64,000 bases of DNA from Dictyostelium discoideum (taxonomy: Eukaryota). The notes under the pieces were generated by a model that saw only the letters and a program-made list of their open reading frames with translations, was not told where the DNA came from and did not search any database. The position numbers were made by a program, and so were the translations under genes. Location of the stretch: assembly GCA_000004695.1 (NCBI GenBank), contig CM000153.2:800001-864000 (forward strand), written 5' to 3'. Numbering within the stretch: the first letter of the stretch is position 1; the number at the start of each line of letters is the position of its first letter. Below, piece by piece: positions 996-50,518 of the stretch.

Positions 996-1029
<34 letters not shown>

Positions 1030-2427: not shown

Positions 2428-2588
2428 TTTTTAATAAAATATAATTAATAATTAAAAAAAAAAAAAAAAAAATAAAAAAAAAAAAAAATAAAAAAAAAAT
2501 AAAAATAGAACAAAAAAAAAAATAAATGAAAAATAAATAACCCCATTTTGTGGTTATCTTATTTTTTTTTTATTCAATTTTACAATTT

Positions 2589-2619
<31 letters not shown>

Positions 2620-2928: not shown

Positions 2929-2967
<39 letters not shown>

Positions 2968-3051
2968 TTTCAATTTTTTTTTTTTATTTAAATCAATTAA
3001 TTTCAATTTTTTTATTTTATTTTATTTATTAAATAATTACCACATATAAAA

Positions 3052-3468: not shown

Positions 3469-3514
3469 ACTTCTTTAAAAATGTAATATAAAGTTTTAAA
3501 TAATTTTTTTTTTT

Positions 3515-3578
3515 TTCCAATTTATTTTATTAAGTTTAAACTCATTTAATACAAATAGATTAAATAAATAATATAATC

Positions 3579-3655
<77 letters not shown>

Positions 3656-3790
3656 TGAGCCATAATTCATTTTTAAACAAAATAAATTTAAAATTAATAA
3701 TTATCTCAGATAAAAAAATATGTTAATGGGTATTATCAAAGACCCATAGATGTAAGGTAGATTGATAATTTCCAACTCTATTTTTTTATT
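3515..3790. repeat. Direct repeat copy 1 (~270 bp, includes a ~70-nt poly(A)) flanking the patatin-gene 3' fragment
   Basis: 3515-3790 (tttaaactcatttaatac...poly(A)...cataattcatttttaaacaaaataaatttaaaattaataattatctcag...cccatagat...tttccaactctattt) is recognisably repeated at 4940-5190. Confidence 0.6.
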
Positions 3791-4024
3791 TTTTTTATTT
3801 CTATTTTTATTTTAATTATATTATTTTAATTTTTTATTATTATTTTTATTTTTATGTTTTATATCTTTAATTTTAATTCTATTATTATTATTATTTTTAT
3901 TATAATGGTGGTTATTGTTTGAATAAATATAAAAAATGATATAATTTAGTTTGAAAATAAATTAAATTTGATTTAACTTTTATATAAACATTATTATGAT
4001 TATTATTATTTGATTTTTAATCCT

Positions 4025-4690
4025 GTAAGAATTAAAACCATTCTTTATTGAAAAGGGAGTGCCAGAAATTGAAGTTTAATTTTTAATTTCATTTAATGGT
4101 ACTAAAGTACATAAGATATCCACAGTATCTGGTGGACTATTAATTACGAATGGAATTGAGAAATCTTGATTTGAAAGTAAAGGTGAAGGAGTTGAATAAT
4201 TGAGTTGTTTTTCAACATTTGAGTGATTAGTATTAAAAATATATCCTGGTGATGATGGAGAATTTTTAAATTGATTAATAATTTCAATTGGAATTTTATC
4301 TAGTCTACATTTTATTTTGCCAGTTAATTGTTGTAGATTGATTTAAGACCAAATCATTAATGTAAAATAATGATGATAAACATTTCTTTATGATTGAATG
4401 TATAATTGGATCATTTTTAGTTTTTTCAGATTGTTGTTTTAAAATATTCATTGTAATATCATCTACTGCATCTAAACCAATTGAATTTTGGAAACTTGGA
4501 TTATTTCTAAATGAATTTCTACCTTCTTTAATTAAATCATAAATTTCATGAACTTCTCTCCAAGAATTCTCACATTCTGTTAAAAGTTTAATAATATTTT
4601 CACCAACTTTAAAAATATTATTTAAATCGGCTTCTGGTGATGGGAAATTACCAGTACCAAGTGAACCAGGTCACATATAAAAGTCTAAAA
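4025..4690 (-). pseudogene. 3'-terminal fragment (~660 bp) of the GTPase-patatin paralog family. It contains stop codons and has no upstream exons
   Basis: Near-identical at nucleotide level to 10021-10680 (the 3' end of copy B). Homology ends abruptly at ~4690. There is an in-frame TAA (gaagtttaa) and small indels. No ORF is reported here. Confidence 0.7.
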
Positions 4691-4833
4691 CAAATTTAAT
4701 ACAAAAAAAAAAAAAAAAATTAAAATAAAATAAATAAAAAAATCTTTTAAAAATAGTCACAACAAAAATTAAAAAAAAAAAACATAACGATAAAAAAAAA
4801 CAGTTTAGGCCATTAATAATTTAAAAATGGATT

Positions 4834-4864
<31 letters not shown>

Positions 4865-4939
4865 TTTTTTTTAATAAAATATTTCTTATTTTTTTTTTTT
4901 TTCAGATATTTTTAAATAATAAAATAGTCAATATTTTCC

Positions 4940-5010
4940 ATTTAGTTTATTTAAACTCATTTTATTCCAAATAAATTAATAAAATAGTCCCAAAAAATAA
5001 TAAGAAATTT

Positions 5011-5057
<47 letters not shown>

Positions 5058-5190
5058 AAATAAATGATTTTTAATTCATTTTTAAACAAAATAATTTAAA
5101 ATTAATATTTATCTCAGGTTATAAAAAAAGATATCAATAGATATTATAAAAGACCATAGATATTTATAATTTCCAAATCTATTTATATAA
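4940..5190. repeat. Direct repeat copy 2 flanking the pseudogene fragment
   Basis: See 3515-3790. Shared blocks are the poly(A) tract, catttttaaacaaaataa, ttatctcag, ccatagat and atttccaa(a/c)tctattt. Confidence 0.6.
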
Positions 5191-5454
5191 AATTAATTCA
5201 TTTTCAAACTTTATTACCAAAAAAAAAAAAAGTAAATATTAGACACATAGAATTAATTTAAAAATATATTTTTTTATTTTATTTGTTTTTTTTATTGTAA
5301 ATTTTAATTAAGATATATAGAAATTATAGTTTTTTTTTTTTAATAATATATTAAAATATTTTTTTTTTATAATTTTAAAATGTTATTGGCAATTAATTTA
5401 AATAAAATTTATAAATGGTAAATTGCCAATGGATTTGATTAATTGTATGAATTT

Positions 5455-7623
5455 TTAATTTTTAGTAGTTATGAATGAATTCTCTATACCATTATTTATT
5501 GAAAAAGGATTACCTGAAATTGAAGTATCATTTTTAATATTATTTTTTGCAACCATAGTACATAAGATATCAATTATATCTGGTGGATTTTTGATTATGA
5601 ATGGATTTGAAAAATTATTTAATTGATTATTTGGGTGTGGAGGTGAAGGAGAAAAATATTGAAAATTTTTATCATTGTTTGAATACTTTAATACAAAAGC
5701 TGAACCTTTTTTTAATTGATTAATTATTTCGATTGGAATTTTATCAAGTCTACATTTTATATTACCAGTTAATTCTTTTTTAGATTTATTAAAAATTAAA
5801 TCATCAATGTAAAATAATGATGATAAAGATTTCTTTATAATTGAATGTACAGTTGGATCATTTTCAATGTTTACTTTTTGTTTTAAAATATTCATTGTAT
5901 TATCATCCATTTCATCCAAACCAATTGATTTCTGGAAACTTGGATTGTACCTAAATGAATTTTTACCTTCCCATATGAAACCATAATAAATTTCATGAAC
6001 TTCTCTCCAAGAATTTATAGATTGTGTTAAAAGATTATATTCCTGATCACCAACTTTAAAAATGTTATTTTTTTGATTTTCTGGTGATGGGAAATCACCA
6101 GTACCAAGTGAAACTAACGTGTCTAAGTTTCTACAAGGCCACATATCTTTATACTCTTTCATTGCAACTTTACAAGGATTATTATTCTTTAAACCACCAT
6201 CAAGAAATTGACGACTATTATATTCAAATGTTCTGAAATATTTAGGTGCAGCTGATGTGGCTTCAGCTGCGTCAGTTACTTTTGAACCAGATATAAAATG
6301 TGTTTGTTTTGAACATTTTGATGGGTATGTTTTTTTTTGATAATTTGAAAATATACACTCATCAAAATCACCAGACTCTTGTGTTACAGTTACAACTGCA
6401 GCCCTTATTTTTGGAAATGAAATTGATAAAAATTTGTCATTTAAAATGGTTTTATAACATTCTTTTAGTTTTTTTCTTTTATATTTGGGTTTTCCAAATA
6501 TATGGGTAATAATACCCAATGTAGGTCTTTCATAACCTTTTTTTGCCAAAATGTCAAATGATATAGCTAATTCTGGTAGTGTTTTCTCAGTTGATGCAAG
6601 TTGTAAAGCAACTAATCCACCTGCAGATGTACCAACAATTAAATCAAACAATTTTGAAATATGAATACCATATAGTTGCTTTTGTATTTCTTGTAAAACA
6701 TTGCAATGTAATATACCTCTAACTCCTCCACCATCCAATGATAGAACTCTTGCACCCATTGTTTTAATAAAATCTATTTCCTTTAATATATATTCTCTAT
6801 CCCCATAACATCCTGGAACTCTACATTCATCTTTAGGTCGATCAGGCATTTGAGAAAATATACCAAGTGAGCAATCTAAACATAGAAAATGTCCACATTT
6901 ATATTCTATATATGGAGAATTTAAACAACAACCAAAACAAACACCTTGATTTGTTGTTGCATGGCCAATGAAAACTTGTTTAATTGTTTCTTTACCAGAG
7001 AGGTGATTACTTAATAATAATGATAAATCATCATATTTTACTGATTCATCAAATTCTCCATCCCATGTATATCTTACTTCTGATTGGTTAAAAAAAGAGC
7101 CAAATATTTCAGTGTGCTTGGGTTTATATGTTTCACTTGATATATGCTTTGTATGAGTACCCCTAAAATTTGTACATGAATAGCCATGTACATTTTTTGA
7201 ACCACACGGTACCATCCCATGTATTTCACCTGATACTAGTTCTAATATGCTTTCAAAACGTGGATGCAATTTTTTAGAATACTCTGGACCTATGTGGTAA
7301 ATTTTTTTAAAATTTGTGTAAATCTCTGGCAATCTAAATTTTAATATATTCAAACAATGGGTGTAACTTTTTGATTCTTTTGAATTACATTTAAATGTTT
7401 CAACAAAATAATAATAATTTATTAAAAAGAATTCAAATAAGTAGTTGGCATGTAAATTTATCATTTGATCTGTCAAAGAATGTTCTTGATTTTTTGAATA
7501 AATTGGCAAAGTTGATTCTTCACTTCCAGATTTATGATTTTGATGTAAATTATCTAAGTCTGGATTAGTTTGAAAAAGACCATCTACTATTGGTCTTTCT
7601 TCTAGTTGTGTTTTATCAATATA

Positions 7624-7722
<99 letters not shown>

Positions 7723-8025
7723 ATTATTATTATTATTATTAGTATTATTAATATTATTATTATTATTATTATGATTTTTATTATTATTATTAGATGAAGT
7801 AGTTGTAGTTGTTGTTTTATTACTGATATTTGCCTCTCTATCCTTTAATATATCTGGTTCAAAATAAGATTCTTCTGAATTTATTGAAAATGTTATTGGT
7901 GTTCCTAAAAGATTTTGAATGGATTTAATTGATGAATCAGAAAATGTGTAATGTGACATATTCCCAATTTTATTTGAAGAAGAAGAAGAACTTGGCAAAT
8001 CTTCATCTGCATTAAAATTAATATA

Positions 8026-8096
<71 letters not shown>

Positions 8097-9490
8097 CATT
8101 ACTATTATTTGAAGTGAAATTTCTAAAAATTTTATTTGTTGATTTTGGTTCTTGAAAATTTGAAAAATCATCAATAATTCCAGTACAATTTAATTTAACT
8201 AAATCGGGTGAACCTATTGGATTTTTACTAAAGAAATTAGTTAAATTTGAAATTCTTTTCATACATTTTGATTTTTCAACAGAAATTTTTGGAGTTCTAT
8301 TATTTTTAAATTTTAAAGATTCTAAAACCTTTTCACTAATAGTTTCTTCCAATTTTTTAAATTGACTTTGATATCTATTAAAAGAATCTAATTCCTTTCC
8401 ATTAATATTTGGTAAGAAAATGATTGAAACTGATTGAAAACGTGTTTCTATCTCTTTTGAACCATGAAAATAATCCTTAAAATATTCTTTCTTGGCATAT
8501 TTCATATCATCATATTCTTTATTTTTATTAGAATTATTAAATAAAATGATTAAATGTGGACTACATGGATTATTTGCACTATCAGCTGCAACCGAAGAAA
8601 ATTCAAGTAAACTATCAATAACATCACCTCTATTTCTGGCATCACCATAAAATGTTAAAACAAAAACATCTGAACATAAATATAATAATCTTGGATAAGA
8701 TGATTGGACATATTTACTTCTAATATCAGCCTTCTAAATAATTAAATAAATAAAATAAAAAATAATAAAAAGAATTAGGAAAAAATCCATTATGAAATTA
8801 AAAATTTTTAATTTTTTAAAATCAAAATACAAACTATTAATAATGATTCATTTTTCTCATCTTTTTCTTTTTTTTCATTTCTTTCTTTTAAATCATTGGT
8901 TTTTTGAGAAAATGTTCCATTGATTCCTTCAGAATCAATAATTACATATTTAAACTTTTCTTCACCAACAGTTTCACCAATAAATGAATTTAAATCTGAA
9001 GAGGTTGATGTAATTGAATCACCACCAGGAATTGGATGATCGCAAGTTTTTGTCAAGTTACAAATTGTGGTTGATTTACCTGAGCCACTAGAACCAATAA
9101 AACTATCGACTAAAAATGGATCTTTATCTGATAATCCAATTTGACCCCATTTGTATCCATGATCAATTGTCTTTGTTTTAGTATTAACAAACAAAAGTTT
9201 ATTTTTTAAATCCATTGATCTATCATATTTTACAATATCATTGTAGCCTTGTGTGAATTTTTGATATTTAAGAAAAAAAGTAACCCTTTTAAATTCTTCA
9301 TAAGGAATTGTTTGGTGTTCTGATTCATCCTGATGTCTAGTTGCACATGATTTACAAATAATTCTATCTCCATTACATTGAAGACAAAAATGAAAATCAT
9401 CACTATTTGTTGATTCTTTTTGACATTTTTTAAAGTCACAAATTATTTTGGTAGGGTATTTATAAATTTCATCTTTTACAAATACCTTTT

Positions 9491-9494
<4 letters not shown>
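5455..9494 (-). CDS. Copy A (apparently intact, ~1312 aa) of a giant multidomain protein: N-terminal Cys/His zinc finger + P-loop GTPase (GBP/atlastin-like motifs), poly-Asn linker, RING-like Cys cluster and patatin-like phospholipase domain
   Basis: Exon 1 is about 8835-9494: MEKVFVKDEIYKYP..., zinc finger C-x4-C-x10-H-x-C-x2-C-x7-C-x2-C-x3-H-x5-H, GSSGSGKST, DSEG. Exon 2 is 5455-8733, starting right after ttag: KADIRSKYVQSSYPRLLYLCSDVFVLTF...; CFGCCLNSPYIEYKCGHFLCLDCS...CRVPGC; LSLDGGGVRG; GTSAGG; DGGLKNNNP. The intron is ~100 nt and AT-rich. The donor in copy A is non-canonical (GTTTGT), so its position is approximate. Confidence 0.7.
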
Positions 9495-9552
<58 letters not shown>

Positions 9553-10009
9553 TAGGGTATTTTATTTAAAAAAAAAAAGTTTATTTTATTTTAAGTTTAC
9601 AATTTTACAAAATTGTTGAGTAAATAATATTACAATTTTAAATAATAATATAATAATAATGTTATAAAAAAAAATAAAAAAAAAAAAATAAAAAAAAAAA
9701 AAAAAATAAAAAAATAATAAAAAAAAAAAAAAAATAAAAATGAAAATAAAAATAAAATTAATTTCACACTATTGCACTTAAATAATTACAAAGATGGTGG
9801 TAATAAAAATAACATCACCCATATTTTTATTATTTTTGTAATTTTTAATATTCATTCAAATAAAGACCACCATTTTTTTTTTTTTATTTTAATTTTTTTT
9901 TTTTTTTTAATTCTATTTTTATTTTTATTATTATTTTGATTATTTAATTTTTTAATTCTATTTTTATTTTTATTTTTATTTTTATTATTATTATTTTTAT
10001 TATTTTTTT

Positions 10010-13965
<3,956 letters not shown>

Positions 13966-15505: not shown

Positions 15506-18500
15506 TTAATCCTCCAAAAGTATGAATAAATTATTTATACCATTCTTTATTGAAAAGGGAGTGCCAGAAATTGAAGTTTCATTTTTAATTTCATTCAATG
15601 GTACTAAAGTACATAAGATATCAATAGTATCTGGTGGACTATTAATTACGAATGGAATTGAGAAATCTTTATTTGGAGGTAAAGGTGAAGGAGTTGAATA
15701 TTTAAATTGTTTTTCAACATTTGAGTGATTAGTATTAAAAATAAATACTGGTGATGAGTTTTTAAATTGATTATTAATTTCGATTGGAATTTTATCAAGC
15801 CTACATTTTATATTACCAGTTAATTGATTTGTAGATTGATTTAAGACCAAATCGTCAATGTAAAATAATGATGATAAACATTTCTTTATGATTGAATGTA
15901 TAATTGGATCATTTTTAGTTTTTTCAGATTGTTGTTTTAAAATATTCATTGTAATATCATCTACTGCATCTAAACCAATTGACTTTTTGGAAACTTGGAT
16001 TGTGTCTAAATGAATTTCTACCTTCTTTAATTATATCATAAATTTCATGAACTTCTCTCCTAGAATTTTCACATTCTGTTAAAAGATTAATAATCTTTTC
16101 ACCAAATCTAAATAAATTATTTAAATCTGCTTCTGGTGATGGGAAATTACCAGTACCAAGTGAAGCCAAAATATCAATATTTCTACCAGGCCACATATCT
16201 TTACACTCTTTCATTGCAACTTTACATGGATTATTATTGATTAAACCGCCATCTTGAAATTGACGATAATTAAATTCAAATTTTGAGAAAAAAGTTGGTG
16301 CAGCTGATGTTGCCTCTGCAGCGTCAATTACATTTGAATTGGTAATGAATTTCCTTTGTTCTGAACATCTTGTTGGGTTAGTCTTTTTTTGGTAATTTAA
16401 AAATAAACATTCCTCTAAATTACCAGATTCTTGAGTTACTGATGTAACTGCTACTCTAATTTTTGAGAATGAATTTTTTAATTTTTCATCAGGTGGGAAT
16501 ATAGTTTTGAAGGATTCTCTTAGTTTATCTCTACTATATTTTGGTTTTGATACTAGGTTAGCTAATAATTGGAATGGATGTTTTACAAATACACTTTTTG
16601 ATAAACTTTCCATTGCTGTACTTAATTGTGCAGGAGTCTTTTGTGTTGATGCTAATGCCAATGCAACCAATCCTCCTGCTGATGTACCAACGATTAAATC
16701 GAATAAAGAAATGATTGGAATGTCAAATAGTTGTTTTTGAATTTGTTCCAATGCATCACAATGTAAAATACCTCTTACACCACCACCATCTAATGATAAT
16801 ATTCTTACACCCATTGTTTGTATTTTATCGATTTCTTTGATCTTACAAGAAAGTTTTCCATTACATCCCCTTACTCTACAACCTTCGTCCGATGTATTTT
16901 GGGTTTGGTCAATAAATCTACCAAGTGAACAATTTAAACATAATAAATGACCACATGTATATGGTATATATGGCGAATTCAAACAACAACCAAAACAAAC
17001 ACCTTGATTTGTTGTTGAACCTTGTATATTGTATGGTAGAATTCTAGGTATACTAGTAAGACGATTACTTAAAAATACCGATAAATCAAAGTATTCTAAT
17101 GATGGCACAAATTCACCATCCCACATATACCTTACGAATGTGTCGGTTTTAAAAAATCCTAACAAACCACCATTTGATAATTTATAAGTTTCATTTGATT
17201 GATGGTTTCTATGAGTTTCTCTATAATTCGTACAAGAATGACCTTTTGCATTCTTTGAACTACATGGTACCATCTTAAATATTTCTTTTGAAACTAAATC
17301 TAAAGTCTTTTTAAAAGATGGATGCAATTTTTTTGAAAACTCTGAATTAATATTATTTGTTTCCTTAAAAATTGAATAAACGTTTGGCAACTTTATTTTC
17401 AAAATTTCTAAACTATCAGAATAACATTTTGATAATGATGATGATGGTTTATTCTCTACTAAATAATTATAATTTATTAAAAAAAATTCTAATAAATACT
17501 GTGCATATTTACAAAGATGTAAATCACTTAAATTATTATCAAGTTTTATGACAGATGTGTTTAATGGTGATGATTGTGATCTTTTTAATGGTGATTGTGA
17601 TGGAGTTGTTGATGAACTATTTGATAATTTTGATGGTTGTGGTGATGGTGGTTGTAATGGTGATGGCGATGGTGGCAATTCTAATGATTGATATGATTGT
17701 GATGGAGATGGTGATGGTGTTGATAGTGTTGATGATGATGGAGTTGTTGATGAACTATTTGGTAATGTTTTTAATTCACTAATTTGTCTTTGCTGTGATG
17801 GTGGTGGCGATTGTAATGATTGATATGATGGTGATGGTGTTAATTCAATAACTTGTCCTTTTTGTAAATTTTCATTATTATATTTATTATAATGGTCTTG
17901 TGGAACAGTATCATCAATCTCTGGACGTAAAAATGATTGAATTTGAAAAAGCTCATCTGCTATTGGTCTTTCTTCAAGTTGTGATTTATCAATGTAACTA
18001 TTATAATCTTTATCATTATTATTAATAATTTTATCATTACTATTATTAATATTACTATTAATATTATTATTATTATAATAATTATTATCATTACAATTAT
18101 TTTTATTATTAATAATATTATTATTATTATTAATAATAATATTATTATTATTATTATTTTTATTATTATTATAATTATAATTATAATTATTATTTTTATT
18201 ATTATTATTATTATAATTATTATTATTATAATTATTATTATTTAAATTATTGTCCGAATTATTTTTTGAATTTGTAAATTTATCTCTATTGATAGGAGAC
18301 AATCCGGTTTGTGGTTGTCTGTTATTTTCATTTAATGGTTTCAAATTTCCCACTGAATATGTTCTGACCCTATCTCTAACTAAATTTGATTCTAATTCAA
18401 CGGGTTTTGAAGTATGCAAAGGTGGTGGTGAATTAAAAATAGTATGAAGACTTTTAATTGATGATGACGGAATTGGTGTTGAGAGATGTGATTTATTAAC

Positions 18501-18544
18501 AACTCTAGAGTTATTACTATTATTGTTATTATTATTATTACTAA

Positions 18545-18607
<63 letters not shown>

Positions 18608-18608
18608 G

Positions 18609-18643
<35 letters not shown>

Positions 18644-18721
18644 AAGAGATGGGCATTGATGGGATTGTTTTATTATTATTATTACTTTTATTATTATTAT
18701 TATTACTTTTATTATTACTAC

Positions 18722-18803
<82 letters not shown>

Positions 18804-19510
18804 ATTATTATTATTATTATTAGAGAAGGACGTTGATGGAACAGTTTTATTATAAATTGGTTTTAATTTATGTGTACTTGGTAATGGTTTTTGTAGTTGA
18901 GCTTGATAATCATTAAGTGAAATTTCATCAAATTTTCTTACTATACCAGTACAATTTAATTTAATTAAATCAGGGGAACCATCTGGATTAGAACTAAAGA
19001 AACTAGCTAAACTTGAAATTTTTTGCATTGATCTTGATTTTTCAACCGAAATTTTTGGACTTCTGCTTTCTTTGTATTTTAAAGATTCCAATACTTTTTC
19101 ACTAATCGTTTCTTCCAATTTTTTAAATTGTCTTTGATATCTATGGAAGGTATTATTTGATTTTTCATTAAAATTAGGTAAGAAAATTATTGATACTGAT
19201 TGAAAACGTAATTGTAAGTCGATTAAATGTGAATGTTGATCTTTGAAATATTCATTCTTTGCGAATGCCATATCATCATATTGTTCTTTTTTAGAGGAAT
19301 TATTAAATAAGATGATTAAATGTGGACTGCATGGATTATTGGTACTATCGGCTGCAACCTGAGAATATTGGACTAATCTATCATAAACATCAGCTCTATT
19401 TCCTGCATTGCTATCAAATGTAAACACAAATACATCTGAACACAAATATAATAATCTTGGATATGAATATTGAATAAATGGAGTTCTTATTTGAGCTTCC
19501 TAATTTTTGT

Positions 19511-19563
<53 letters not shown>

Positions 19564-20235
19564 TTAATATATCTTTTGGAAAAAAAAAAAAAAAAAAATG
19601 ATAATAATAATTACTTGGAGTTTTATTTTATTTGTTGTTTGAGAATTTGTTCCATTTATACCTTCAGAATCAATTATTAAATATTTATAATTTTTATTAC
19701 TACCCATTGTTTCGCCAATAAAAGAATTAATATCAGAAGATGTTGAAGAAAGAGTTTCATGATTTCCAGGAATTGGATGGTTATAATTTTTAGTTAAATG
19801 ACCAATTGTAGTTGATTTACCTGAACCACTGGTACCAATAAAACTAACAACTAAAAATGGTTCATTATCAGATAACCCAATTGAATCCCATTTATTTCCA
19901 AAATCAATTTTCTTTGATAAAGTATTAATAAATAATAATTTATTATCTCTATCCATTGATTCATTATATTGTTTAATATGTTGATAATCTTTAGTGAATT
20001 GTTCATACTTTAAAAAAAATGTAACTTTTTTATATTCTTTATATGGTATAGTTTGATGATCTGTTTGTCCAGTATAACCTTTTTTACAAGAAGTACAAAC
20101 TATTTTATCATCAGTGCATCCCAGACAATAATGAAAGTCTTCAATATTTGTTGACTCTTTTAAACATCTTTTTAAACCACATTTCATTTTATTACTATGT
20201 CTATAAACTTCATCTTTTACAAATGTTTGTTTCAT
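15506..20235 (-). CDS. Copy C of the GTPase-patatin family. Exon 1 and most of the body are intact, but a 1-nt insertion near 15950-15980 shifts the frame so the last ~147 codons are read in another frame. This is a possible pseudogene or a sequence error
   Basis: Exon 1 is 19615-20235: MKQTFVKDEVYRHS..., GTSGSGKST, DSEGINGT, donor CTCCAA|GTAATT. Exon 2 is 19499 downward, starting after ttag: EAQIRTPFIQYSYPRLLYLCSD.... Body ORF 15957-19445 plus separate-frame ORF 15506-15949 encode the conserved C-terminus. Copy C has gactttttgg where copy B has gaattttgga. Confidence 0.65.
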
Positions 20236-31439: not shown

Positions 31440-33120
31440 ATTAGATTTGGTGAAAGATTAAATAATATAGTCTTTAGTTCAAAAATACACCAGATTCTTT
31501 AATATTTGCTGAAATAATTTCAAATTGCGCCAATACTCTTGATGAATTTGTTTTTCCTGTTGTGTGTAGTAATTTAAATTCAATTGCAAAAGAAAATATG
31601 AAAAGCCCATCTTTTGAAGTTTACAAATCTTTATTTATGGAAAATGATTCAACAACTAAATTTGTAAATCAATTCTTTTTAACTTACCCACAAATTGGAC
31701 ATTCAATGAGAAGCTTTTTAGATAATAATATCAATAATATTGAAAATTGTTTATCTAGATTACAATCAGATTGGGATAGTATTAAAAAGTGGTTTGCTAC
31801 CCAATTGTAACCCACTTTCTATCCAGAGGATATCAAGCTAACCAGGAGAAACAATTGTTAATGTTGGATGTACATCATTTTATTCAACTTATTTAGTTTC
31901 AAATTCCAATCTCAAATTTGAAAATGAATCAATTCAAAATTATACAGATATAATTTATTCCTATGGGTGTATTGATACACTAATTTCTTCACCACCAACA
32001 GATGCGGAAGTGGAAAAAATAGAAGATTGTATTCAAAAGGGTGTTTGCACCGATGTAGATGCTGATCCATCCTCGTTTATAGAATGTGCAATATCTATTA
32101 GTATTGAAATTTTATCAACAATTGAATAAACATTACAAGGAAGTGGATTAATTACACATGGTAGTTTTTATTTGGGTTTATCTGGTGTTTTAGTTTTTCT
32201 TTCTGGAATTTAGGCACATTCCAATTCTATTTCAATGTTTAAACTTTGTGATAGAATAGTGAATTCTATATTAGTTAATAGGCCAAAGTTTACACCGTGT
32301 GGTGGTGCATTTGATGGATTATCATCTGATATTTATGCAATTTGTTTCTCAGGTATAATAACAAAAAACCATTAATGGATAAATAAAGAAATTTCATTAG
32401 TTTCAAATGAAATTTCAAAGGATTTAATTTTACAAAGTAAAGTTTTGGATATTGTAGGTGGGGTCACAGGTTGTCTATTAACAATATATGTTGTAAGATA
32501 TAAAGTACCTCAAGAGCTAATTAACCTAGAAACTGCAGACCTTTTAGATTCATTAATAGATTTATCTGTAACAAAATTATTAAATTCTATAGAACTAGTA
32601 AAGGAAATGAATACAGGCATATCACATGGTATTTATCACTTTCTTTACCTTATTTCAGAGCTGATTTGAAAAGTTCAGTACAATCATTTATTGAAAAAAT
32701 AGTTATTTTGGAAGATGAACATTTTTGTTCTAAAACTCAAGAATGGAAAGATACAAGGGAAATTAATTGTAACTCAATAGTAATTGTGTATTCATGGTGT
32801 TATGAAAGTCCTGGTATTTAAATTTCAAGAAAATTAATTGGTGATTCTTATAAATATCCAGTTGGATATGATAAAAATAAAATTTATGAAATGGAGCCAA
32901 CAGATCTATCCTTTTGTTGTGATCTTTCAGGTAAAATAGATGTTTTATCTTTATTATTAAATGAAAATAGTGAAATAACATTTAAATATGCTCAATCATT
33001 AGTAAGAAAACTTTAGATAAAAAACAAATAATATTTGAAAATAACAGATATAGTTTTTTTAAAGGTATATCGGGAATTGGTTATGTTTTATTAAGATTAA
33101 GTAATTTAAAAAATATCCAT
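31440..33120 (+). pseudogene. Degenerate LanC-like (lanthionine synthetase C-like) domain gene with multiple in-frame stops and frameshifts
   Basis: LanC motif relics sit in shifting frames: GLSGVLVFLSGI, GISHGIYHFLYL (GxAHG), SWCYESPGI (the WCHGxPG position with His lost), LSFCCDLSGKIDVL (the CHGxAG position with His lost), and C-terminal FFKGISGIGYVLLRL. Stops interrupt the conserved blocks. G+C is higher than in the flanking intergenic DNA. Confidence 0.5.
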
Positions 33121-37649: not shown

Positions 37650-39734
37650 TTATAATTTATAATATGAACGTTTTGTAACACGACCATCAGAACCACAAGA
37701 GAATAAACCATTATTTTCTAATCTAACTTGCATTACACCATAGGTTGAAACTGGAGATTTGAAAACACCTGTTGGACGAACAAAAGTTTGTTTTTTATGA
37801 GCATCTTCAAAGGTATTGAGACAAGTCATCGATGGTAAGGACCAAATCTTAATGTTACCATCACTACTACCAGAGCAAACAAACTCTTCGAATGGATCCA
37901 ATGCCAATGATTTAGTATTTAAATGATGAGCTTTGAAACTTTCCAATTGTTTATGAGTACGAATATCGTAGAGTGACAATGAACCTTTCTTACCACCAAC
38001 GATGATAGTTTGACGTTTTGGAGAATAAACAATTGAGGATGCGCCATTCTCTTGATCGGTGTAAGAGGCAATCAATGATTTATTAGGTGGCAATAATACA
38101 TCCCATAGACAGATATCACGAGATTTGCTATCACTACTACTGATACCGGCAGTTGCCAATAAACTTCCAGAATTTAAAAATGTGAAATCCAAACATTGCT
38201 TAGAATGAGCTTGAAGTGAATAGAATGGTTTCAAGGTATCTTCTTGAGCTGCGAATTGCCACAACAAGATATTACCCGCCATATCGCATGCACCAAATTT
38301 AGTGCCACTTTGATTGAATTTACATCTAACGATTCTTGGTTTTTGAGGGAGTTGATAGGCAGTCAATACCTCTGGTATACCAAATTGCCATAAACAAACC
38401 GAACCATCGATACCACCCGATAAATAGAATGAAGAGTTTGGATGACTTTCTAAACATTGTACAATTATATTATGATCCATTTGTCTACTTGATCTTAAAC
38501 CACTGAATACCGTACTAATCTTACCTTTGGAGATGTTTAAAGATGAAACTGATTTACCAGTGATACGTGGTCTTTTATTATCTCTACTTGAAGATGGTGA
38601 ACTAATTAAATTCTCTGATGGATCTATATCATGTTCTTCCCTAATTTCACTAACCAATTGTTTATGATCAATCTCTCTAATACCACGAGTGGTTGCAATT
38701 GCCATAACATTTAATTCTGGTGAAGTTGGATCCAAACAAAATGATTGTAATAAATCACTATCCTTATAAATTTCAATCTCTTCTTCAAATTTAATTTTAC
38801 CACTACCACCACCAAATTGAACTTGGCTACCAACTTTTTTCAATGGCATTGGTTCATTATTTTTATTTACCTTACTATTATTATTATTGTTATTACCACC
38901 ATTAATATCTACTGGTAAAGTAATTTCAATACCAAGTATAATATGATCTAATAATTCTTTTTGATTTGTAATTAAAATTTTCCAAATTTGATATTGATCA
39001 GTTGAATTAAATTCTTTATAAGATTTTAAAAGTTCTAAAAAGTTTTCAATTGTTGTTTTAGTTGTATTATTGGTGAATTGATCTAAAATCTTTTGTGGAA
39101 CATGTAAAAGTTTTGATTGTGATGAACCAATCCAAAGTGATAAACGTTGATTCACTGAATCGAATACTTGATGGTATGGCAATGCCTTTACTAATTGATC
39201 GAAGCATTGTTTAAAATATTTCAATGAAAGGAAATCAAAGAATCTTTTTAAGAATTTATATATTAATTTCTTTTCATCATTAATTCTCTTTAATTCTTCT
39301 TTATCTAATATTTCATTTGGATCGTCATCTTCATCATCCATATCAAAATCATCATCATCATCATTATTATTATCACCAGCACCAATTAATTCATTATTTT
39401 CAGTATCTTTATAAGATCTAATTGGTAATTGTTTAATTTGATCAATGAATTGATTAAATTGTTGGATAGTATTCTTATTTTTGAATAATACTAATAACAC
39501 ATCGAAACGTTGTGAACCATAACCTAATAAAAATAACATCATATAAACTGTTGATAAAATCAATGAATGACTATGATAACGTTTATCAATAGACATAATT
39601 GATTGATAAATCTCTAATGAAACTGTTAATAATGGTTGTGATGCTGATGAATTCATTAACATTAAAATATTATCATCATCAAATCTTAATAATGATTTAA
39701 TTATTGAAATTGAAATTAATTCTAATATATCCAT
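37650..39734 (-). CDS. C-terminal WD40 region (694 aa) that probably belongs to the DmX-like/rabconnectin-3/Rav1 gene directly upstream on the same strand. Otherwise it is a separate WD40 gene
   Basis: C-terminal WD repeats: ...GSSDGNIKIWSLPSMTCLNTFEDAHKKQ...GVMQVRLENNGLFSCGSDGRVT. The 400 bp between this ORF and the upstream 1266-aa ORF is coding-like in three shifting frames with no intron signals. Confidence 0.55.
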   Translation of the reverse strand: MDILELISISIIKSLLRFDDDNILMLMNSSASQPLLTVSLEIYQSIMSIDKRYHSHSLILSTVYMMLFLLGYGSQRFDVLLVLFKNKNTIQQFNQFIDQIKQLPIRSYKDTENNELIGAGDNNNDDDDDFDMDDEDDDPNEILDKEELKRINDEKKLIYKFLKRFFDFLSLKYFKQCFDQLVKALPYHQVFDSVNQRLSLWIGSSQSKLLHVPQKILDQFTNNTTKTTIENFLELLKSYKEFNSTDQYQIWKILITNQKELLDHIILGIEITLPVDINGGNNNNNNSKVNKNNEPMPLKKVGSQVQFGGGSGKIKFEEEIEIYKDSDLLQSFCLDPTSPELNVMAIATTRGIREIDHKQLVSEIREEHDIDPSENLISSPSSSRDNKRPRITGKSVSSLNISKGKISTVFSGLRSSRQMDHNIIVQCLESHPNSSFYLSGGIDGSVCLWQFGIPEVLTAYQLPQKPRIVRCKFNQSGTKFGACDMAGNILLWQFAAQEDTLKPFYSLQAHSKQCLDFTFLNSGSLLATAGISSSDSKSRDICLWDVLLPPNKSLIASYTDQENGASSIVYSPKRQTIIVGGKKGSLSLYDIRTHKQLESFKAHHLNTKSLALDPFEEFVCSGSSDGNIKIWSLPSMTCLNTFEDAHKKQTFVRPTGVFKSPVSTYGVMQVRLENNGLFSCGSDGRVTKRSYYKL

Positions 39735-40142
39735 TGCTTTTTCATCACCATCTTCATTATTATTACTATTATTATTATTATTATTATTATATTTAGTTAA
39801 TTGAATTACTTGATAAACATATTGTCTATTTGAACAATATTCAATTAATGATTTAACAATTTCTTTTGGAATTAACTTGATTCTTTTTACATAAATATTC
39901 TAATGATTCTTTAAAATCTTTAAATTCCTCATCCCAATTATCAGCTTCTCTAGTTTCCATAATGGTTTCAAGTAAAACTTTAACAACCAATTTATCTTTT
40001 AATTCATTATCAATCAATGAATATAATGAAAGTTTTTCTTTTTTACTTGGTATGAATGTTGCTGCTTACAATGATGCTTCTGCATGCTGATAATGCTGCT
40101 TTATCTTCTCTATCTTTATTTGATTTTTCTTCTTCAATCTCT

Positions 40143-43100
40143 TTAATTGATTCTTCTTTTGGATTTATTACTATCTAACAACTCCCACCTATTATTATTA
40201 TTATTATTGGTGGTGGTTGATGATGGTGCACCAAAGTCTAAACCATAATTATTTGAAGATGATGATTGACTTGGTGTATTGAAATCTAATCCCATATAAT
40301 TTGATGATGAATTTTCTGGTTTTGATGGTGTACTACCAAAGTCTAAACCATAATTATTTGAATTTGATGATGATGATTGAGTTGGTGTATTGAAATCTAG
40401 TCCCATATAAGATGAAGAAGTCGATGGTTTTGATGGTGTACTACCAAAATCTAATCCTAAATCATTTGAATTTGATTGAGTTGGTGTATTGAAATCTAGT
40501 CCCATATAAGATGATGAAGTTGGTTTTGATGGTGCACTACCAAAATCTAAACCTAAATCATTTGAAGGTTTACTAAAGAAACCACTACTACTACCGCCTC
40601 CACCACCAAAATCTAAACCCAAATCATATGACGGTTTATTAAAGAAACCACTACCACCGCCACCACCACCAAAATCTAAACCTAAATCATTTGATTTTTG
40701 TTTTTCTTTTTCTAATCTTTCTTTTTCTTTTTCTTTTTCTTGTTGTTGTTGTTTTAATTTTTCTAATTTTTCAACTTCTTGACGTTCTTGATTATCAGTT
40801 AAAATGGTTGGATGAGATGCTTCTAATCTTTCAATATTTTCAAGTGCTAATAATGAACAACCACTATTGAAATAAGAGTAAGAACTAGTTCTTAAGAATT
40901 CATCTTCTTTCTTTTTATCCTCTGATAATTGACGTAATTGAACATGATTCTTTAAGAAACGGAAGAAATATAAAATGGAAGGACCTAATTGAGAAGCACG
41001 TAATTGTTGAGAGATTGGTGATACCACTTGAGTGGTTAAGGTTGTACCTGTAGCATTTGAGTAATTTGTACCAGTGGTTGATCTATTAATTGGTGATGAT
41101 ACCATTGAATTACGACTAGACATACCAATTGGTGTTGAATTACCAGAAACACCTAAACTATAACCACCACCACCACCACCACGTTGATTGTTATCATCTT
41201 CATCAAGTTTTCTATCACCATCTATTGAAACTGATGGTATTAAACATGTTATAGCATCTTCATACTTTTTCAATAACCAATTACAAATACTTAATAAACT
41301 ACGATCATTAGTTTTCTTTGCAAGTGGTATGATATGATCTTCAATGATCATACGTGAACATTCGCCATTCTCACCTTCATACAATCTTGAGATAACCAAT
41401 GCCAATTGGAAATCACCTTGCATTTGTAATAAAAGATTTACAGCTTTCTTTAATTGACCTGCTAAAAGGAATAATGAAGCAGCCAATTCATATTTATGTT
41501 TACTTTGTAAAAGGAATGCACTTTTATTTGCAGCAGTGATCCATTTAGCTTGAGTGAAATCTTGTGAAAGGAATTCAACTTGTTTTATATCTTTTGAAGC
41601 TTTATGCAATGCAACCAACGCACCTTTTTTACCCAATGCTAAATAATACAATGAACATTCTCTTGGGTCTCTTCTTTGAATGTAGGTTGTCTTTGCCAAC
41701 TTTTCCACTACATTTATCAAGGTACTTGGCGATTTAATCCACAAACCAGCACCAATTTGTTTTAAAGCATCCCAATCTGGATCGGTTGGGAAACAAGTTG
41801 AAAGAATAGTTTCTTGTGCCTCTGAATGTAACGCCCAAAGAATATCGGTTGTACTCAATGAGATTGGACGATCTTGTGGTGGTAATGATCTACGTAAAAA
41901 TTGGAATACCTTTGCTGACAATATGAAACGTGAACCATTCTCATCGAGACCACCTCTCATTTCACCAATTTCACCATAGGTATCGGTAACTGCTAACAAT
42001 TGAATTTGTTCACTACTTGAAAGATTACCCAATTTAATTGATGATAAAATTTCACTTAATTTTCTTGCTTGTCTTTTTGTAAATTTATTTGAATTTTCTA
42101 ATTCATCCCTATCACTATCGTCGTCGTCGTCGTCGTCATCGTCATCATCTTTATTACGATCATTACGATCATTATGATTATTCTTATCAATTGAATTCAT
42201 TCTATCCATATCATCAGAAGTACCAGTTTTCTTTGATTTTGAATTTGTAAATTCATCGAAATGAATAATCTCTTCAATTGATAATGGTGGTATGAAAACT
42301 GGTGATTTTGGTAAATCATTTAAATCATCATATTTTTCGAAAAGGAATTGACAAACATGTTTTAAGATCTTTTCAACAACACCAAATTTACCAGCCATCA
42401 TGTATTCAGTTAAGAATTTTGGATGATACATTGGTAAAGGACGTTGAAGTTCAGAATGTTGATGATAAATTGAATTCAATTTGGTATTGTAATCATGACC
42501 AACCGTTTGAAATTGTGATAATGCTAAGTTGTCATTGATGTTGTTAAGTTTTGACCATTTTGTAAACACCATAATTTGATTACCAGCACTAACATACAAT
42601 GATAGATCTTTACCCCATTCTAAGCTACTACATGGCGAGGTTAAATCATCATAGTTATGAGTTTGAACCCATGGTCTCTTATAACTACCAATCACTCTAT
42701 CCACTGGTTTATTTAAGATTTTCACTTGGTTACCATACCCAAATGCAACTGAATAGCTACCATCATCTAAACTAACAAAACTAAAACAACAACTAATAAT
42801 ATCCTCATGTGCCAATGACGATGATGATGCCGCTAATGCCGTTCCGACACCAACATTGTTTGTACTGGCTTTCAATAAAATTGTAGTTGTAAGTGGCGGT
42901 GATTTAAATGCACCAATTCCTGAAGTTGGTGATGTTATTATAACTTGTGGTGTATTTAATGGTGTAGCAATTGCTGTTGTTGTTGTTGTTGTTGTTGTTG
43001 TTATTGCTTGTGGTATTTCACTATCTATATAAAATTTAATGGTATCTTCTAAACGTAACTTTGGTGTATGTGATTCTAATTCCCAAATATGAATTTCTGG

Positions 43101-46100
43101 ATTTGGATTAGTAGAGAATGCTTTTGATGCAAATCTACCAAAATAAGCTGCTTTAACTGATTCAACTGGTTGTTGATATGCATGATAACCACCCATTTCA
43201 CCAATTGTCCAATCTTCGAATTTGATCTCTTCTTCACTATCACCACCCTTTACAAATGATATTTTTGGTGTTATACCAAATACTGATACATAACCATCAA
43301 TACTACCAGTAATACAAATTGGATGTGTTAAAACTACTCTATCTTCATTATTGTACTTTTCATTATTATTATTATTATTATTATCGTCATTATTATCGTC
43401 ATCATCATTATCACTAAAATCTTCATTTTGATTTTTATTCATTTTATTAATAGTTGTCATATCGAAAATACCTTTTGGTGCAGCACAAATACAAGAAATT
43501 CTTGAATCCCTTTCAAATTCTTTTGTTGCTAATAATTTTGATTTTAAAATTGATGGAGAGGATGATGAAGAATATTTGAAATCCTTTTCAACACTAACAC
43601 CCCAAACATATAATTTATCTGAATGTTTATTCAAACCAATTAAAAAGAATTGGTATGGTAATAAAACACTACTTTCACCACCACCACCACCATTACGTCT
43701 ACTGCTGTCGTTATTAACTTTATTCTTATCAAAATCCATTGAATTATAATGATAAATTAAATTTAATGGATCAACTATATGAACTTCATCAATCCAATCA
43801 TCCTCTAATGTTGATTCTTCAATCATACCAATTGATAACAATGATGATTTAACATAATTCTCTTGACTAATCTCTATATAATATACAAATATACCATCTC
43901 TATTTGAAAAGAAACAAAACTTTTGATTTGGTGACCATGTCATTGAATAATATGATGGAAATGATCCAATATCAATTAAATAATTTGGTGATTGAATTTT
44001 CTATAATAACAATAACAATAATAATAATCGAAAAATTAATAAATATTAAATTTAAAAATATTTGTTTTTAAATATAAACTTACACTTGAATCTGTTGAAT
44101 TCCAAATAATAACATTATTTTGATAATCTAAAGATGAAAGATATGGTGAATTTTTAGATGCTGCCAACTTTTTAATTGTACTTTTATGACCATAACATCT
44201 AGATACTGGTGATGCATTTGTACTATTATTATTATTATATGTACATATAATAATAAAAAAGAAAAAAAGTATTAGAATATATGTATATATATATATATAT
44301 TTATATTTTCATTTAAAAAAAAAAGATAAACATTACATTTGAGTTTGATTTTGATTTTGAATATAAAATCTTCTTGAAGAGATTGCACCATTAAAAGAGT
44401 TAAAACAAACTTTAATTGAACCAGGAGTATTATCAGTCAATGACATTGGTTGATATAATGAGATGATTCTATTTGGACCAATTTCTTGTGGTGATAAAAT
44501 TTGACTATTAATCCAAATTGATAATGATGAAGTTTGCTTTGTCATTGAATCATCTGTTCTTAATTTCCACAACACTAAAGAACCATCCAATTTAATAACA
44601 ATAATCCAATCAACTATTTGTTTAGTTTTTGCTAAAGAATCTTTTTGTCTTAATAAAATTGGATTTGTTAAATGTAATTTAAAATCATGACTTCTTAAAT
44701 ATGAATTTGAATCATCTGTTGAATTATTATTATTATTACTATTACTATTTAATGATGTACCTGTAGTTCCACTTGAAGATTTTGATAATTTACCACCACT
44801 AAAACCACCACCTGCATTATTATTATTATTACTATTACTATTATTTTTTTCATCATTTATATTATTATCTTCATTATTTTTATTAAATATATCAAATTTA
44901 TCTTCATTTTGAGAATAAACCCAATCAACAATATCAGAACCTGATGGTATAATACTTGAAACATTAAATTGTAATCTTCTAGATTGTGGTGATTGTTGCC
45001 ATAAACGGACAACACCATCTTTGCAATTTGTTAATAAGATATTATGAGTTGAAGTTTTTCTATTTCTCCAAGAAATCCAAGTGATTGAACGTGGATGTGG
45101 TAAATAAATGAAACCATAGGTTTCACCTTCAAATTTTTTATTTTTCTGCTTATTGAAAATCTCTTTCAATTGATTCAATTGTTTTTGTAATTCTTCAATT
45201 GATTGTTCTTCTTTTTGTGGTTGTTGTTGTTGCTGTTGTTGTTCTTTATTTTTATTAGCATCACCACCTTTTTCTCTTTCTTTTTCTTTTTGTAATTTAT
45301 CTCTTTTATTTAATTCAGTATTGATATCGTTTGAATCTTCACCAGTGCCAATGCCACCACTACTAACCACCTCGTCAAAACCAATTTTATTTGCTTTATA
45401 GATTGGGCCTTTGTTGGTGAGTTTATTGAATTGCTCTTTGTATGCACCTTTTCTGTTCTTTTGTTTGGCCAATTCCTCACGTTGTAATAGTAATGATAAT
45501 TGTTCTTGTTGTAATTTAATTTGTTGCTCCTCTGCCAATAGCTTTGCTTTTGATTTCTTTTGAAGGAACCAAACCTTAATTAAACGATCAAATTTACCAC
45601 AAGTTGCAAAGAATGAACCATCGGGTGAACATGATAAATTATTAATTGGACTTGAACTATCAGTTTTCCAAACGATTTGTGCTTGCTTATTAAATAATTT
45701 TTGTTCTTTTATTCTTTGATCTTGTAAAAACTTTTCATTATTAACTCTAACTTGTGTATTATTATTCAATGCACTCGTTGTTGGTGTATTATTACCGCTA
45801 CTATTTAAATTGATTTTATTAGTCGTTGTTGTTGAACTAAATTCTTGATCTAAACTATTATTTTTACCAAATGACGATGACGATGTTGAATTTGGTGATG
45901 ATGTTGAATTATAATTATAATTATTATTGGCAGAACTACTACCACTACCACTACTAACACCACCACCATTATTAATTTGATAATTTTTCATAATGGTTTG
46001 TTGATCTAATTTCCATTTTACAATTTGTGAATGACCACCAACAATAAAAGAATTTGATTGTAACCATGATAAAGCTGTAATTTCAAATTGACTTGGTATT

Positions 46101-46384
46101 GTGAATACGTGTTCCCATAATCCTCTTTCTTTATTTAAAACGTATAAAAAGATTTCATGTGATGATGATGTTAATAACTTTGTATCGTTTGATAACCATG
46201 ATACGCATGTAACATCACTTTGATGTCCTGTTAAAACTTGAATAACTTTCAATGAAACTCCTTTCAATATATAAACATTTGATCCTGATGAATAGGAATA
46301 ATAAACATCATCTTCATAAATTGTATATGTAAATGTTAAAGGATTAGAGTTTGCTGACCCTGTTATAATTTGACTGGGTTTCAT
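40143..46384 (-). CDS. DmX-like / rabconnectin-3 alpha / Rav1-family WD40 protein (V-ATPase RAVE-type regulator), N-terminal and central parts, >=3 exons
   Basis: Exons are 44337-46384 (MKPSQIITGSANSNP...; compare human DMXL MNLHQVLTGAVNPGD, ...FFATCGKFDRLIKVWF, GFIYLPHPRSITWISWRNRKT...LLTNCKDGVVRLWQ; donor GTAATG), 44084-44222 (TNASPVSRCYGHKSTIKK...YQNNVIIWNSTDSS, donor GTAAGT) and 40143-44000 (KIQSPNYLIDIGSFPSYYSMTWSPNQKF...; ends with a 10x GLDF repeat array and a stop at 40143). Confidence 0.7.
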
Positions 46385-46582
46385 TTTTTTTTTTTTTTTT
46401 TTTTTTTTTTTATTCTATAGAATAAAATAAATAAATAAAAAATAAATTGGGTTTTAAAAAAAAAAAAAAAAAAAAAATGAATAAAAAAAAAAAAAAAAAT
46501 CTTTATCCTTTAATTTTCTTTTAAAAATGTATCTTTTGGAGTGAACTTTGATGATTTTTTTAATTTATAAAAAAAAAAATAA

Positions 46583-46615
<33 letters not shown>

Positions 46616-47463
46616 ACTTTTAAAAAAATTAAAAAAAAAATTAAAAAAAAATAATTCACCAGTGTTTTCAAATTTTCAATTTTTTTTTTTTTTTTTTTTA
46701 TTTTTTTTTTAATAATTTTACACAAAAATGGAAATTCAATAAAAATTAAACAATGGAATTTAAATAATTTTTTTTAAAAAAAAAAAAAATATAATTAATT
46801 CAATCAGACAATCAATTGTCCAATTATAATTAATTTTTTAAAAATTTTATTTAAATGCACGTAAGTTTATCAATTTTGGAAAAAAAAAAAACTCAATTTT
46901 TAAAATATATGTAATGTTGAAATAAAAAAAAAAAAAAAAAAAAGGTCCAACTCGAATCCCACTATTATAGATTAAAAAAATAAAAAAATAATAAAAAAAA
47001 TTTCCAAATTTGGAAAAAATAGAAATAAAAAAGTAAACAAGTAATCTTTCCAGAAAATTAAAAAATGAATGAACCAACTTAGAAAAATCCAAGAACTGGT
47101 TAACAGTATCATTTTGATATAGTATAGGGTTGTATATTTGTGTTACATATATATATATATATATATATATATCTCTCCCCTTTAATATTTATTGGTTAAT
47201 ATTAAATTTAAAACATAAAATAAATATTTCCAGAAAAACTAAAAAATAAAAAAAAAATTTTAAAATGGAGGAGTCTCCAAGTTCAAAAAATTTTTATTTT
47301 TTTTTTATAATTTTTTTTATTTTATTTTTTTTTATATTTTTTTTTATTTTTTTTTCAAAATGAGTGCGGTTTTTTCAATTTTTTTTTTTTTTTTTTTTTT
47401 TTTCTTCTTTAGTTCCCCTTTTCTCAATCATCAACTAAATCAATAATAAACAATTAATCAAAA

Positions 47464-49687: not shown

Positions 49688-49933
49688 ATTTAAAATAAAA
49701 TAATAAAAAAAAAAAAAAAAAAAAAAAATTAAATTAATAAATTTAAAAAAAAAAAAAAAATAGATAGTTTTTTTTAGAAAATAATATAAAAAAAAAAAAA
49801 AAAAAAAAACATATCAAAATCAAAATGGTGATCAAAAAAAAAAAAAAAAAAAGATATTTTTAGAAAAAAAAAAATAATTTTTTTTTTATGTGGTTTTTTT
49901 TTTCAAAATTTTAATTTTTAATTTTTTTTTTTT

Positions 49934-50518
49934 TTATAATAAATTACAAGATTTCTTTTTTTTAATTGGTTGATCAGTATTTTGTTCTTGAGAATTTGAA
50001 TGTTGATTTGATTGACGAGCTTTTTTAACTTCTCTAACAAGTTCATAAAAAGATTCAGAAACATTGATTCTTTCTTTGGCAGAGGTTTCCAAGAATTTAC
50101 AGTTTAACTTCTTTGCCAATTCTTCACCTTCGGCGGTTGAAACTTCACGATATTCATTGAGATCACATTTATTTCCTACCAATACGAATGGTACTGAATC
50201 TAAATCTTTTACTTTCAAAAGATGATTATGTAAACGATGAATCTCTTTAAAACTTTGAAGATATGTAATTGAGTAAACGCATAGAAATCCCTCACCTGTA
50301 CGCATATATTGATCCCTAACCGCACTGAAATCTTCTTGACCTGCGGTATCATAAATATCTAATAAACACTCCTCTCCATCAACTGTTGTTTGCTTTCTAT
50401 ATGAATCTTCTAATGTTGGATCATATTCATCCACAAATTTTTGTGCAATAAATTGAATTGTTAAACATGATTTACCAACACCACCTGGTCCAACTAATAC
50501 TAATTTAAAATTAAACAT
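49934..50518 (-). CDS. Ras-subfamily GTPase with C-terminal CAAX box (CNLL), single exon, 194 aa. It is closest in feel to Dictyostelium RasS/RasB-type proteins
   Basis: [43 protein letters not shown]...[28 protein letters not shown]...LVGNKCDL...ETSAK...polybasic KKKKSCNLL. The P-loop is GPGGVGKS, with Pro at the Ala11-equivalent position. Confidence 0.85.

Follow-up and report, generated by a model that had tools for sequence, protein, structure and literature searches.

A 313-nt cluster of frame breaks in the DmX-like/Rav1 gene of the Dictyostelium discoideum AX4 reference is very probably a patch of base-calling errors

The three long minus-strand open reading frames (ORFs) at the DmX-like/Rav1 locus of the analysed Dictyostelium discoideum AX4 sequence, a stretch of 64,000 nt from chromosome 4 hereafter called the window, belong to one gene, and the frame breaks that appear to cut it are very probably base-calling errors of the reference. 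If T40163, G40083 and G39876 are deleted and the two genuine introns are spliced, the product is 2844 aa long, which is the length called in a second D. discoideum assembly (locus L014); one TAA remains after the three deletions, and it stems from a GT/AA miscall. The expected product, built from the L014 sequence and the downstream part of the window without G39876, was retrieved by exact look-up as KAM9943330.1 (hypothetical protein ACTFIT_006728, Dictyostelium discoideum, 2844 aa), encoded on a contig of 5,576,411 nt. Since this match is exact, a D. discoideum genome without the three bases and without the stop exists. As such, a sequence-only reading of the window was right to propose one DmX-like gene of about 2800 aa.

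The window has a GC content of 22.8% and contains Dictyostelium genes. The elements of the gene discussed here are listed below; a gene model with these exons and introns was checked and reproduces the deposited proteins exactly.

44333-46384, minus strand: 683-aa ORF with WD40 and propeller Pfam matches, corresponding to the N-terminal WD40 region
44337-46384, minus strand: exon 1 of the DmX-like/Rav1 gene, N-terminal WD40, ATG at 46384 (ORF and Pfam)
44223-44336, minus strand: genuine intron 1, 114 nt, GTAATG...ATAG, GC 0.096 (sequence and gene-model check)
44084-44222, minus strand: exon 2, small (sequence and gene-model check)
44001-44083, minus strand: genuine intron 2, 83 nt, GTAAGT...ATAG, GC 0.096 (sequence and gene-model check)
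37650-44000, minus strand: true exon 3, unbroken coding sequence in the other assemblies, split in the window by the putative error patch
40143-43943, minus strand: 1266-aa ORF ending in ...SNKSKRRIN*, Pfam Rav1p_C (PF12234, E=1.3e-99)
40230-40694, minus strand: coding tandem repeats with periods of 99, 48 and 66 nt (GLDFG..NTPSQSSS), directly upstream of the patch
39756-39790, minus strand: (AAT)n microsatellite within the coding sequence (poly-Asn), directly downstream of the patch
37650-39734, minus strand: 694-aa ORF beginning MDILEL..., C-terminal WD40 (Pfam)

Exon 3 encodes, in this order, Rav1p_C, the GLDFG repeats, a linker, a helical region and the C-terminal WD40 propeller; its stop codon occupies 37650-37652. 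Yeast Rav1 (PDB 9cop_x) matches the 1266-aa ORF (residues 621-904 versus Rav1 832-1114, E=3.4e-48), and Rav1p_C is also recognised (PF12234, E=2.2e-101) in the orthologue of a distant dictyostelid (L002, an 8.4-kb metagenome contig), where the whole gene is one 2685-codon ORF with no intron and its protein carries Rav1p_C at residues 1029-1659 and WD40 at 2396-2640. The Pfam matches in the 683-aa ORF of exon 1 indicate an N-terminal WD40 beta-propeller, and a DMXL-type C-terminal WD40 region lies on the same chain (Pfam; L002, seven assemblies and KAM9943330.1). The AlphaFold model of the last 350 aa is an all-beta WD40-type propeller (pLDDT mostly 85-93 over residues 80-350), and its best PDB matches in Foldseek are WD40 structures. 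Searches of the C-terminal part against the PDB by sequence and by Foldseek returned generic WD40 proteins and nothing more specific, the protein search for propeller relatives gave unnamed fragments alone with no named DMXL protein among them, exact look-ups of the 694-aa, 891-aa and 65-aa ORFs found no match, and the literature held nothing specific on a Dictyostelium DmX/Rav1 or on the accessions. With the tested family features present, the locus is a single DmX-like/Rav1 gene of the rabconnectin-3-alpha type, for which a role in V-ATPase V1-Vo assembly can be predicted from family membership only (PMC8264551).

A coding-like stretch runs in all three frames from the TAA at 40143-40145 to the ATG at 39734. 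A minus-strand three-frame translation of 40400..39500 reproduced the three peptides that the sequence-only reading had given for it, and the frame order on this strand, 0 to 1 to 2 to 0, amounts to three successive +1 shifts. The 2685-aa protein of L002 aligns to the window collinearly in tblastn (q692-1850 at 44000-40224, q1913-1973 at 40041-39871 and q1967-2679 at 39890-37662), and the frame pattern is far beyond chance. The 1266-aa and 694-aa ORFs were likewise confirmed as described, and the junction, with a GC of 0.23-0.27 versus 0.096 in the two genuine introns of the gene, is indeed neither AT-rich nor intron-like. A frameshift-aware alignment of the L002 protein to the window needs exactly three 1-nt skips. 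The ancestral gene is thus continuous, and the window carries one surplus base at each of three places.

Comparison loci were entered via the neighbouring RasS ORF (49934-50518), whose protein is matched exactly in seven Dictyostelium assemblies at NCBI; each of these calls a single gene of 2839-2952 aa after eIF3B. The same-species assembly is GCA_054883475.1 (CM142510.1; loci L014 and L017), which matches the window over ~24 kb, and the loci from sister species (L012, L015 and L016) are 91-93% identical to the window. Holland et al. (PNAS 2025, PMC12745789) describe ten Nanopore and Illumina Dictyostelium assemblies including AX2-214 (PRJNA1300491); the comparison genomes probably belong to this set, and GCA_054883475.1 is probably AX2-214. 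The comparison assemblies share one project and one technology (Nanopore plus Illumina), and L002 is an independent Illumina metagenome contig with the same reading frame.

From 50518 to 39900, the window differs from L014 in 46 of 10,619 aligned columns. The lengths of long intergenic poly-A/T runs, the window being longer each time, account for 32 of them and substitutions adjoining poly-A/T runs for another two, while 11 fall within 40188-39927 (262 nt) and the sole coding difference outside the patch in these 10.6 kb is at 41716. Over window 1-13468 (13.4 kb), the comparison with L017 revealed only homopolymer lengths and substitutions in AT-rich, mostly non-coding sequence, a good number of them next to poly-A/T runs. 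The background rate predicts ~0.05 differences per 313 nt; the patch has 12. Of the other same-strand frame breaks in the window, those within the compared stretches (1451-1575 and ~4333) are the same in the second D. discoideum assembly, which rules out that the window is error-prone in general; its sequence is accurate outside the patch, and the anomaly is local. Long, mostly intergenic poly-A/T runs (49759-49852, 46406-46699, 3580, 9494) are longer in the window by 2-44 nt in nearly all cases, which suggests homopolymer compression in the Nanopore-based assembly and not errors of the window.

The positions that matter within the patch are the following:

39876-40188, minus strand: putative error patch, 12 window-unique differences in 313 nt (three insertions and nine substitutions)
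40163, minus strand: extra T, site 1, frame 0 to 1, AATAAA[T]CCAAAAG (multi-species and L014 alignment)
40143-40145, minus strand: TAA at which the 1266-aa ORF seems to stop; without T40163 it is not in frame
40083, minus strand: extra G, site 2, frame 1 to 2, TCAGCAT[G]CAGAAGC (multi-species and L014 alignment)
40066-40068, minus strand: TAA left in the corrected frame, from a window-unique GT (40069-40068) where the other assemblies have AA (...SEASLKAPTF...)
39876, minus strand: extra G, site 3, frame 2 to 0, AATCAA[G]TTAATTCC (L012/L015; exact-product look-up in the same species)

Patch calls rest on L014 for 11 differences, and for site 3 on L012/L015 and then on the exact protein look-up. 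Read on the minus strand from 40188 to 39927, the window/L014 differences are G/T (40188), G/T (40182), G/C (40179), +T (40163), G/A (40110), +G (40083), GT/AA (40069-68), G/C (40062), A/C (39995) and G/A (39927). The sister loci back L014 at each patch position (L012, L015 and L016 for 40188-39995, L012 and L015 from 39927 on), and this agreement makes the state of the window the derived, unique one. Without T40163, the frame reads ...DSNKPKEESIKE..., and the junction frame is unbroken in L014, L012, L015 and L016. On the coding strand, the window has G in nine of the 12 differences, and among the nine substitutions seven are towards G. Base-calling trouble typically leaves such a one-sided pattern, whereas mutation is usually biased towards AT. 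Homopolymer indels in the assembly, as suspected from the sequence alone, are partly confirmed: there are three window-unique 1-nt insertions, but all of them lie outside homopolymer runs (AAA[T]CC, CAT[G]CAG, CAA[G]TTA), and nine substitutions accompany them. Equally, it is not a one-base change in an A5 run that fuses two of the frames, as the actual 2 to 0 break is the extra G at 39876 (AATCAA[G]TTAATT).

From our point of view, the extreme clustering, the one-sided G bias and the fact that every change is unique to one sequence make base-calling errors in the AX4 reference a highly probable explanation of the patch. In this comparison of assemblies, the differences occur in one of them only, form a cluster, favour one base and are missing where the same species was sequenced independently, and from the sequences we infer that they would be reference errors rather than AX4 strain mutations. 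Against this, the cluster is denser than expected even for a poor Sanger read. The frame breaks are very probably not real biology, and neither recoding nor a split gene nor a new element needs to be invoked.

One could also imagine a real lesion of the AX4 lineage, with local hypermutation that introduced three frameshifts and a nonsense codon, after which the protein would end at ~2014 aa, behind Rav1p_C and the repeats and without the helical region and the WD40 propeller. The window reproduces the deposited AX4 protein exactly and hence is the sequence as deposited for AX4; moreover, the comparison genome is another isolate or strain, a genuine lesion would give the same comparison, and the downstream 749-codon frame is still open, as a very recent lesion would leave it. 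However, we consider such a lesion improbable, as 12 changes, nine of them to G on one strand, would have to fall into 313 nt of a gene that otherwise shows about one coding change over more than 6 kb and whose product, the RAVE/rabconnectin scaffold, is kept as one ORF across dictyostelids. To our knowledge, no spontaneous process yields three +1 insertions plus nine substitutions in one short patch. The related suggestion that the gene has been split or pseudogenised found no comparative support: the frame is unbroken in L002, L014, L012 and L016 and, across the junction, in L015, seven assemblies have one gene, and the disabling changes are common to no relative and restricted to 313 nt of a gene of 8.7 kb whose remainder hardly differs from the other assembly. 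If the AX4 sequence were right, the sole DmX-like/Rav1 V-ATPase assembly factor would be truncated before its C-terminal propeller in the most-used Dictyostelium reference strain. In the improbable event that the deposited patch is right for AX4, as 313 hypermutated bp, endosomal and contractile-vacuole acidification phenotypes, AX4 versus AX2, could be affected.

The AX4 annotators already modelled one gene at this locus and bridged the breaks by two workaround introns. The resulting 2792-aa protein of D. discoideum AX4, a 'WD-40 repeat-containing protein' (XP_001733008.1 / EDR41063.1 / UniRef100_B0G145), sits in one 90% cluster with KAM9943330.1, and the window translates exactly to it given four GT..AG introns, namely the two genuine ones and two extra:

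40062-40171, minus strand: workaround intron A, 110 nt, GTAATAAA...GCAG, GC 0.30, which removes 36 codons that every other assembly has as coding sequence
39809-39857, minus strand: workaround intron B, 49 nt, GTTAAATC...TCAAG, GC 0.20, which deletes 16 conserved codons

It had been claimed that no GT...AG intron can reconcile the frames. This does not hold, as 48 single-intron solutions were enumerated and the reference annotation uses two introns; all of the 48, however, delete conserved coding sequence. That the reference gene model is right, with two real spliceosomal introns (40171-40062 and 39857-39809) and the 2792-aa XP_001733008.1 as product, would agree with the GT..AG ends, the restored open frame and the exact translation to the deposited AX4 protein. 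It is nevertheless very unlikely, since the same-species assembly, the sister species and the distant orthologue all have both segments as in-frame coding sequence, their GC of 0.30 and 0.20 contrasts with 0.096 in the genuine introns, and their removal costs 52 conserved codons including LIPKEIVKSLIEYCSNRQYVYQV. They furthermore exist only through window-unique bases, and the 3' end of intron A (GTAAGCAG) alone holds three of these (40069, 40068, 40062). As D. discoideum-type spliceosomal introns they were rejected: GT..AG is present, but they are not very AT-rich and are in-frame coding in all relatives.

Compared with XP_001733008.1, which is the annotation of the same sequence and in which the locus is already one gene, the corrected product has the 36 and 16 conserved residues that the annotated protein lacks, and about 12 residues around the junction are very probably wrong in the latter. 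KAM9943330.1 (GCA_054883475.1) is the same gene in the same species; it has no frame breaks and equals the window product after reverting the three bases and nine miscalls, bar residue 1491, where it has Arg and the window has Ile (41716). The minus-strand codon at 41716 is ATA, and Ile at residue 1491 is found in the window and the AX4 protein; this window-unique, nonsynonymous difference faces Arg in 7/7 other Dictyostelium assemblies and Lys in the distant orthologue, which points either to a further error of the reference or to a SNP of AX4.

Three programmed +1 ribosomal frameshifts at TAA-A, similar to antizyme, RF2 or Euplotes-type recoding, could in principle also connect the frames, as all shifts are +1 and the 0-frame stops read AAT TAA A, AAG TAA A and TGT TAA A. 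In addition, a +1 break near site 2 is seen in a metagenome contig with a distant orthologue (L001, a 2.8-kb JGI contig whose protein P0001, the first and only orthologue from the protein search, reads through the frame-2/frame-0 junction). However, the break in L001 is merely A7 versus A6, and the sibling ORF in L002 is uninterrupted. The two contigs come from the same organism, with A7 in L001 (Ga0256782_1005754, 427-433) and A6 in L002 (Ga0256787_1000823) in TTTATTAAAAAA(A)GAAAG, a homopolymer indel that produces a spurious +1 break in L001 near the equivalent of site 2; lone contigs can hence mimic conserved frameshifts. No related genome has a frame break here, the extra bases precede the stops by 17-20 nt at sites 1 and 3 and by 39 nt at site 2 instead of lying at them, and TAA-A is the expected commonest stop context at 23% GC, all of which leaves frameshifting extremely improbable. 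A programmed +1 frameshift was also rejected on the ground that the same-species assembly, the sister species and the distant orthologue show no frame break.

Lastly, the locus could hold two independent genes, one for a Rav1-like protein and a separate one for a WD40 protein starting at M39734, and indeed there are two long ORFs and an ATG at 39734. An AT-rich intergenic spacer is nevertheless missing, conserved coding sequence is found upstream of ATG 39734 both in its frame and in another, and eight other genomes have a single ORF or gene, so that we regard the chance of two genes as negligible.

Returning to base-calling errors as the preferred explanation, the events can be pictured as follows. 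A single gene with two genuine short introns and a long third exon would encode 2844 aa, and a 313-nt stretch of exon 3 (40188-39876), located between the coding tandem-repeat array and the (AAT)n run, would have been of low sequence quality; that the flanking repeats caused this is a guess. In this stretch, three spurious single bases (T40163, G40083, G39876) and nine miscalls, one of which makes the TAA, would have entered the reference. Each spurious base would shift the frame by +1 and so create the illusion of three coding segments. Nothing biological would happen at the breaks, and the mRNA would be read in one frame through ...NNNNNNSWDFLDSNKPKEESIKEIEEEKSNKDKEDKAALSASEASLKAPTFIPSKKEKLSLYSLIDNELKAKLVV...EYLCKKNQLIPKEIVKSLIEYC...

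Several further observations concern the repeat array and other genes of the window. The repeat units at 40230-40694 (minus strand) follow the pattern (S/N)(D/N)(L/Y)GLDFG(S/A)xPSKP...YMGLDFNTP(S/T)QSSS and separate the Rav1p_C region from the C-terminal part; Dictyostelium species differ in the copy number of the GLDFG array, and the distant orthologue has MGLDFGSPPKSN repeats. At ~19700 of L015 (GCA_054859385.1, sister species), a 25-nt deletion in this array relative to L012 and L014 breaks the frame; either the assembly collapsed repeats here or the variant is real. A large tandem gene family comprises X1 (5455-9494), X2 (10010-13927) and X3 (15506-20235), with X3 being 94% identical to X2. 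X3 includes ORFs at 15957-19445 and 15506-15949 (minus strand) with a break near 15988, where a 1-nt insertion (TTTCCAAAA[A]GTCAATTGG, versus CCAAAATTCAATTGG in X2) shifts the last 162 codons by +1 while the downstream frame is still open; X3 could be a pseudogene or contain another reference error. At 4019-4670 (minus strand) lies a truncated 3'-end copy of an X-family gene, 87-92% identical to X2 and with a break near 4333; the second D. discoideum assembly has the same sequence, so this copy is a genuine gene fragment or a pseudogene. At 982-2248 (minus strand), ORFs of 196 and 266 aa overlap by 125 nt with a +1 offset and no AT-rich intron; the second assembly has the same sequence here and calls one product of 418 aa from it. 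Finally, a gene at 31478-32821 (plus strand) is broken into several short ORFs in different frames; from its GISHG and SWCYESPGI motifs we take it to be LanC-like, and it may be a pseudogene.

Overall, the finding has little biological weight and a modest practical value. Dictyostelium has a sole DmX-like/Rav1 homologue, and its AX4 protein (B0G145 / XP_001733008.1) is very probably in error around residues 2000-2125, with 52 residues absent, about 12 substituted and two fictitious introns; for knock-outs, tags and structure predictions the corrected 2844-aa KAM9943330.1 is the sequence to use. In genome scans, clustered breaks in an intact conserved gene should first be compared with a second assembly.

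With regard to known systems, DmX/DMXL proteins have WD40 repeats at the N-terminus and near the C-terminus and a central Rav1p_C homology region, whereas yeast Rav1 has no C-terminal WD40 repeats (PMC8264551). The expectation that DmX/Rav1 proteins carry WD40 repeats at both ends therefore applies to DmX/DMXL and fails for yeast Rav1. The Dictyostelium protein shares with DmX/DMXL1/DMXL2 (rabconnectin-3 alpha) a size of ~3000 aa, the N-terminal WD40, the Rav1p_C centre and the C-terminal WD40; its GLDFG repeat array is a Dictyostelium-specific insert, and the likeness of its propeller is at the generic WD40 level. With yeast Rav1 (RAVE complex; PDB 9cop chain x), it has the conserved central region in common, but the yeast protein is, at 1357 aa, about half the size, and the C-terminal WD40 is found on the Dictyostelium chain only.
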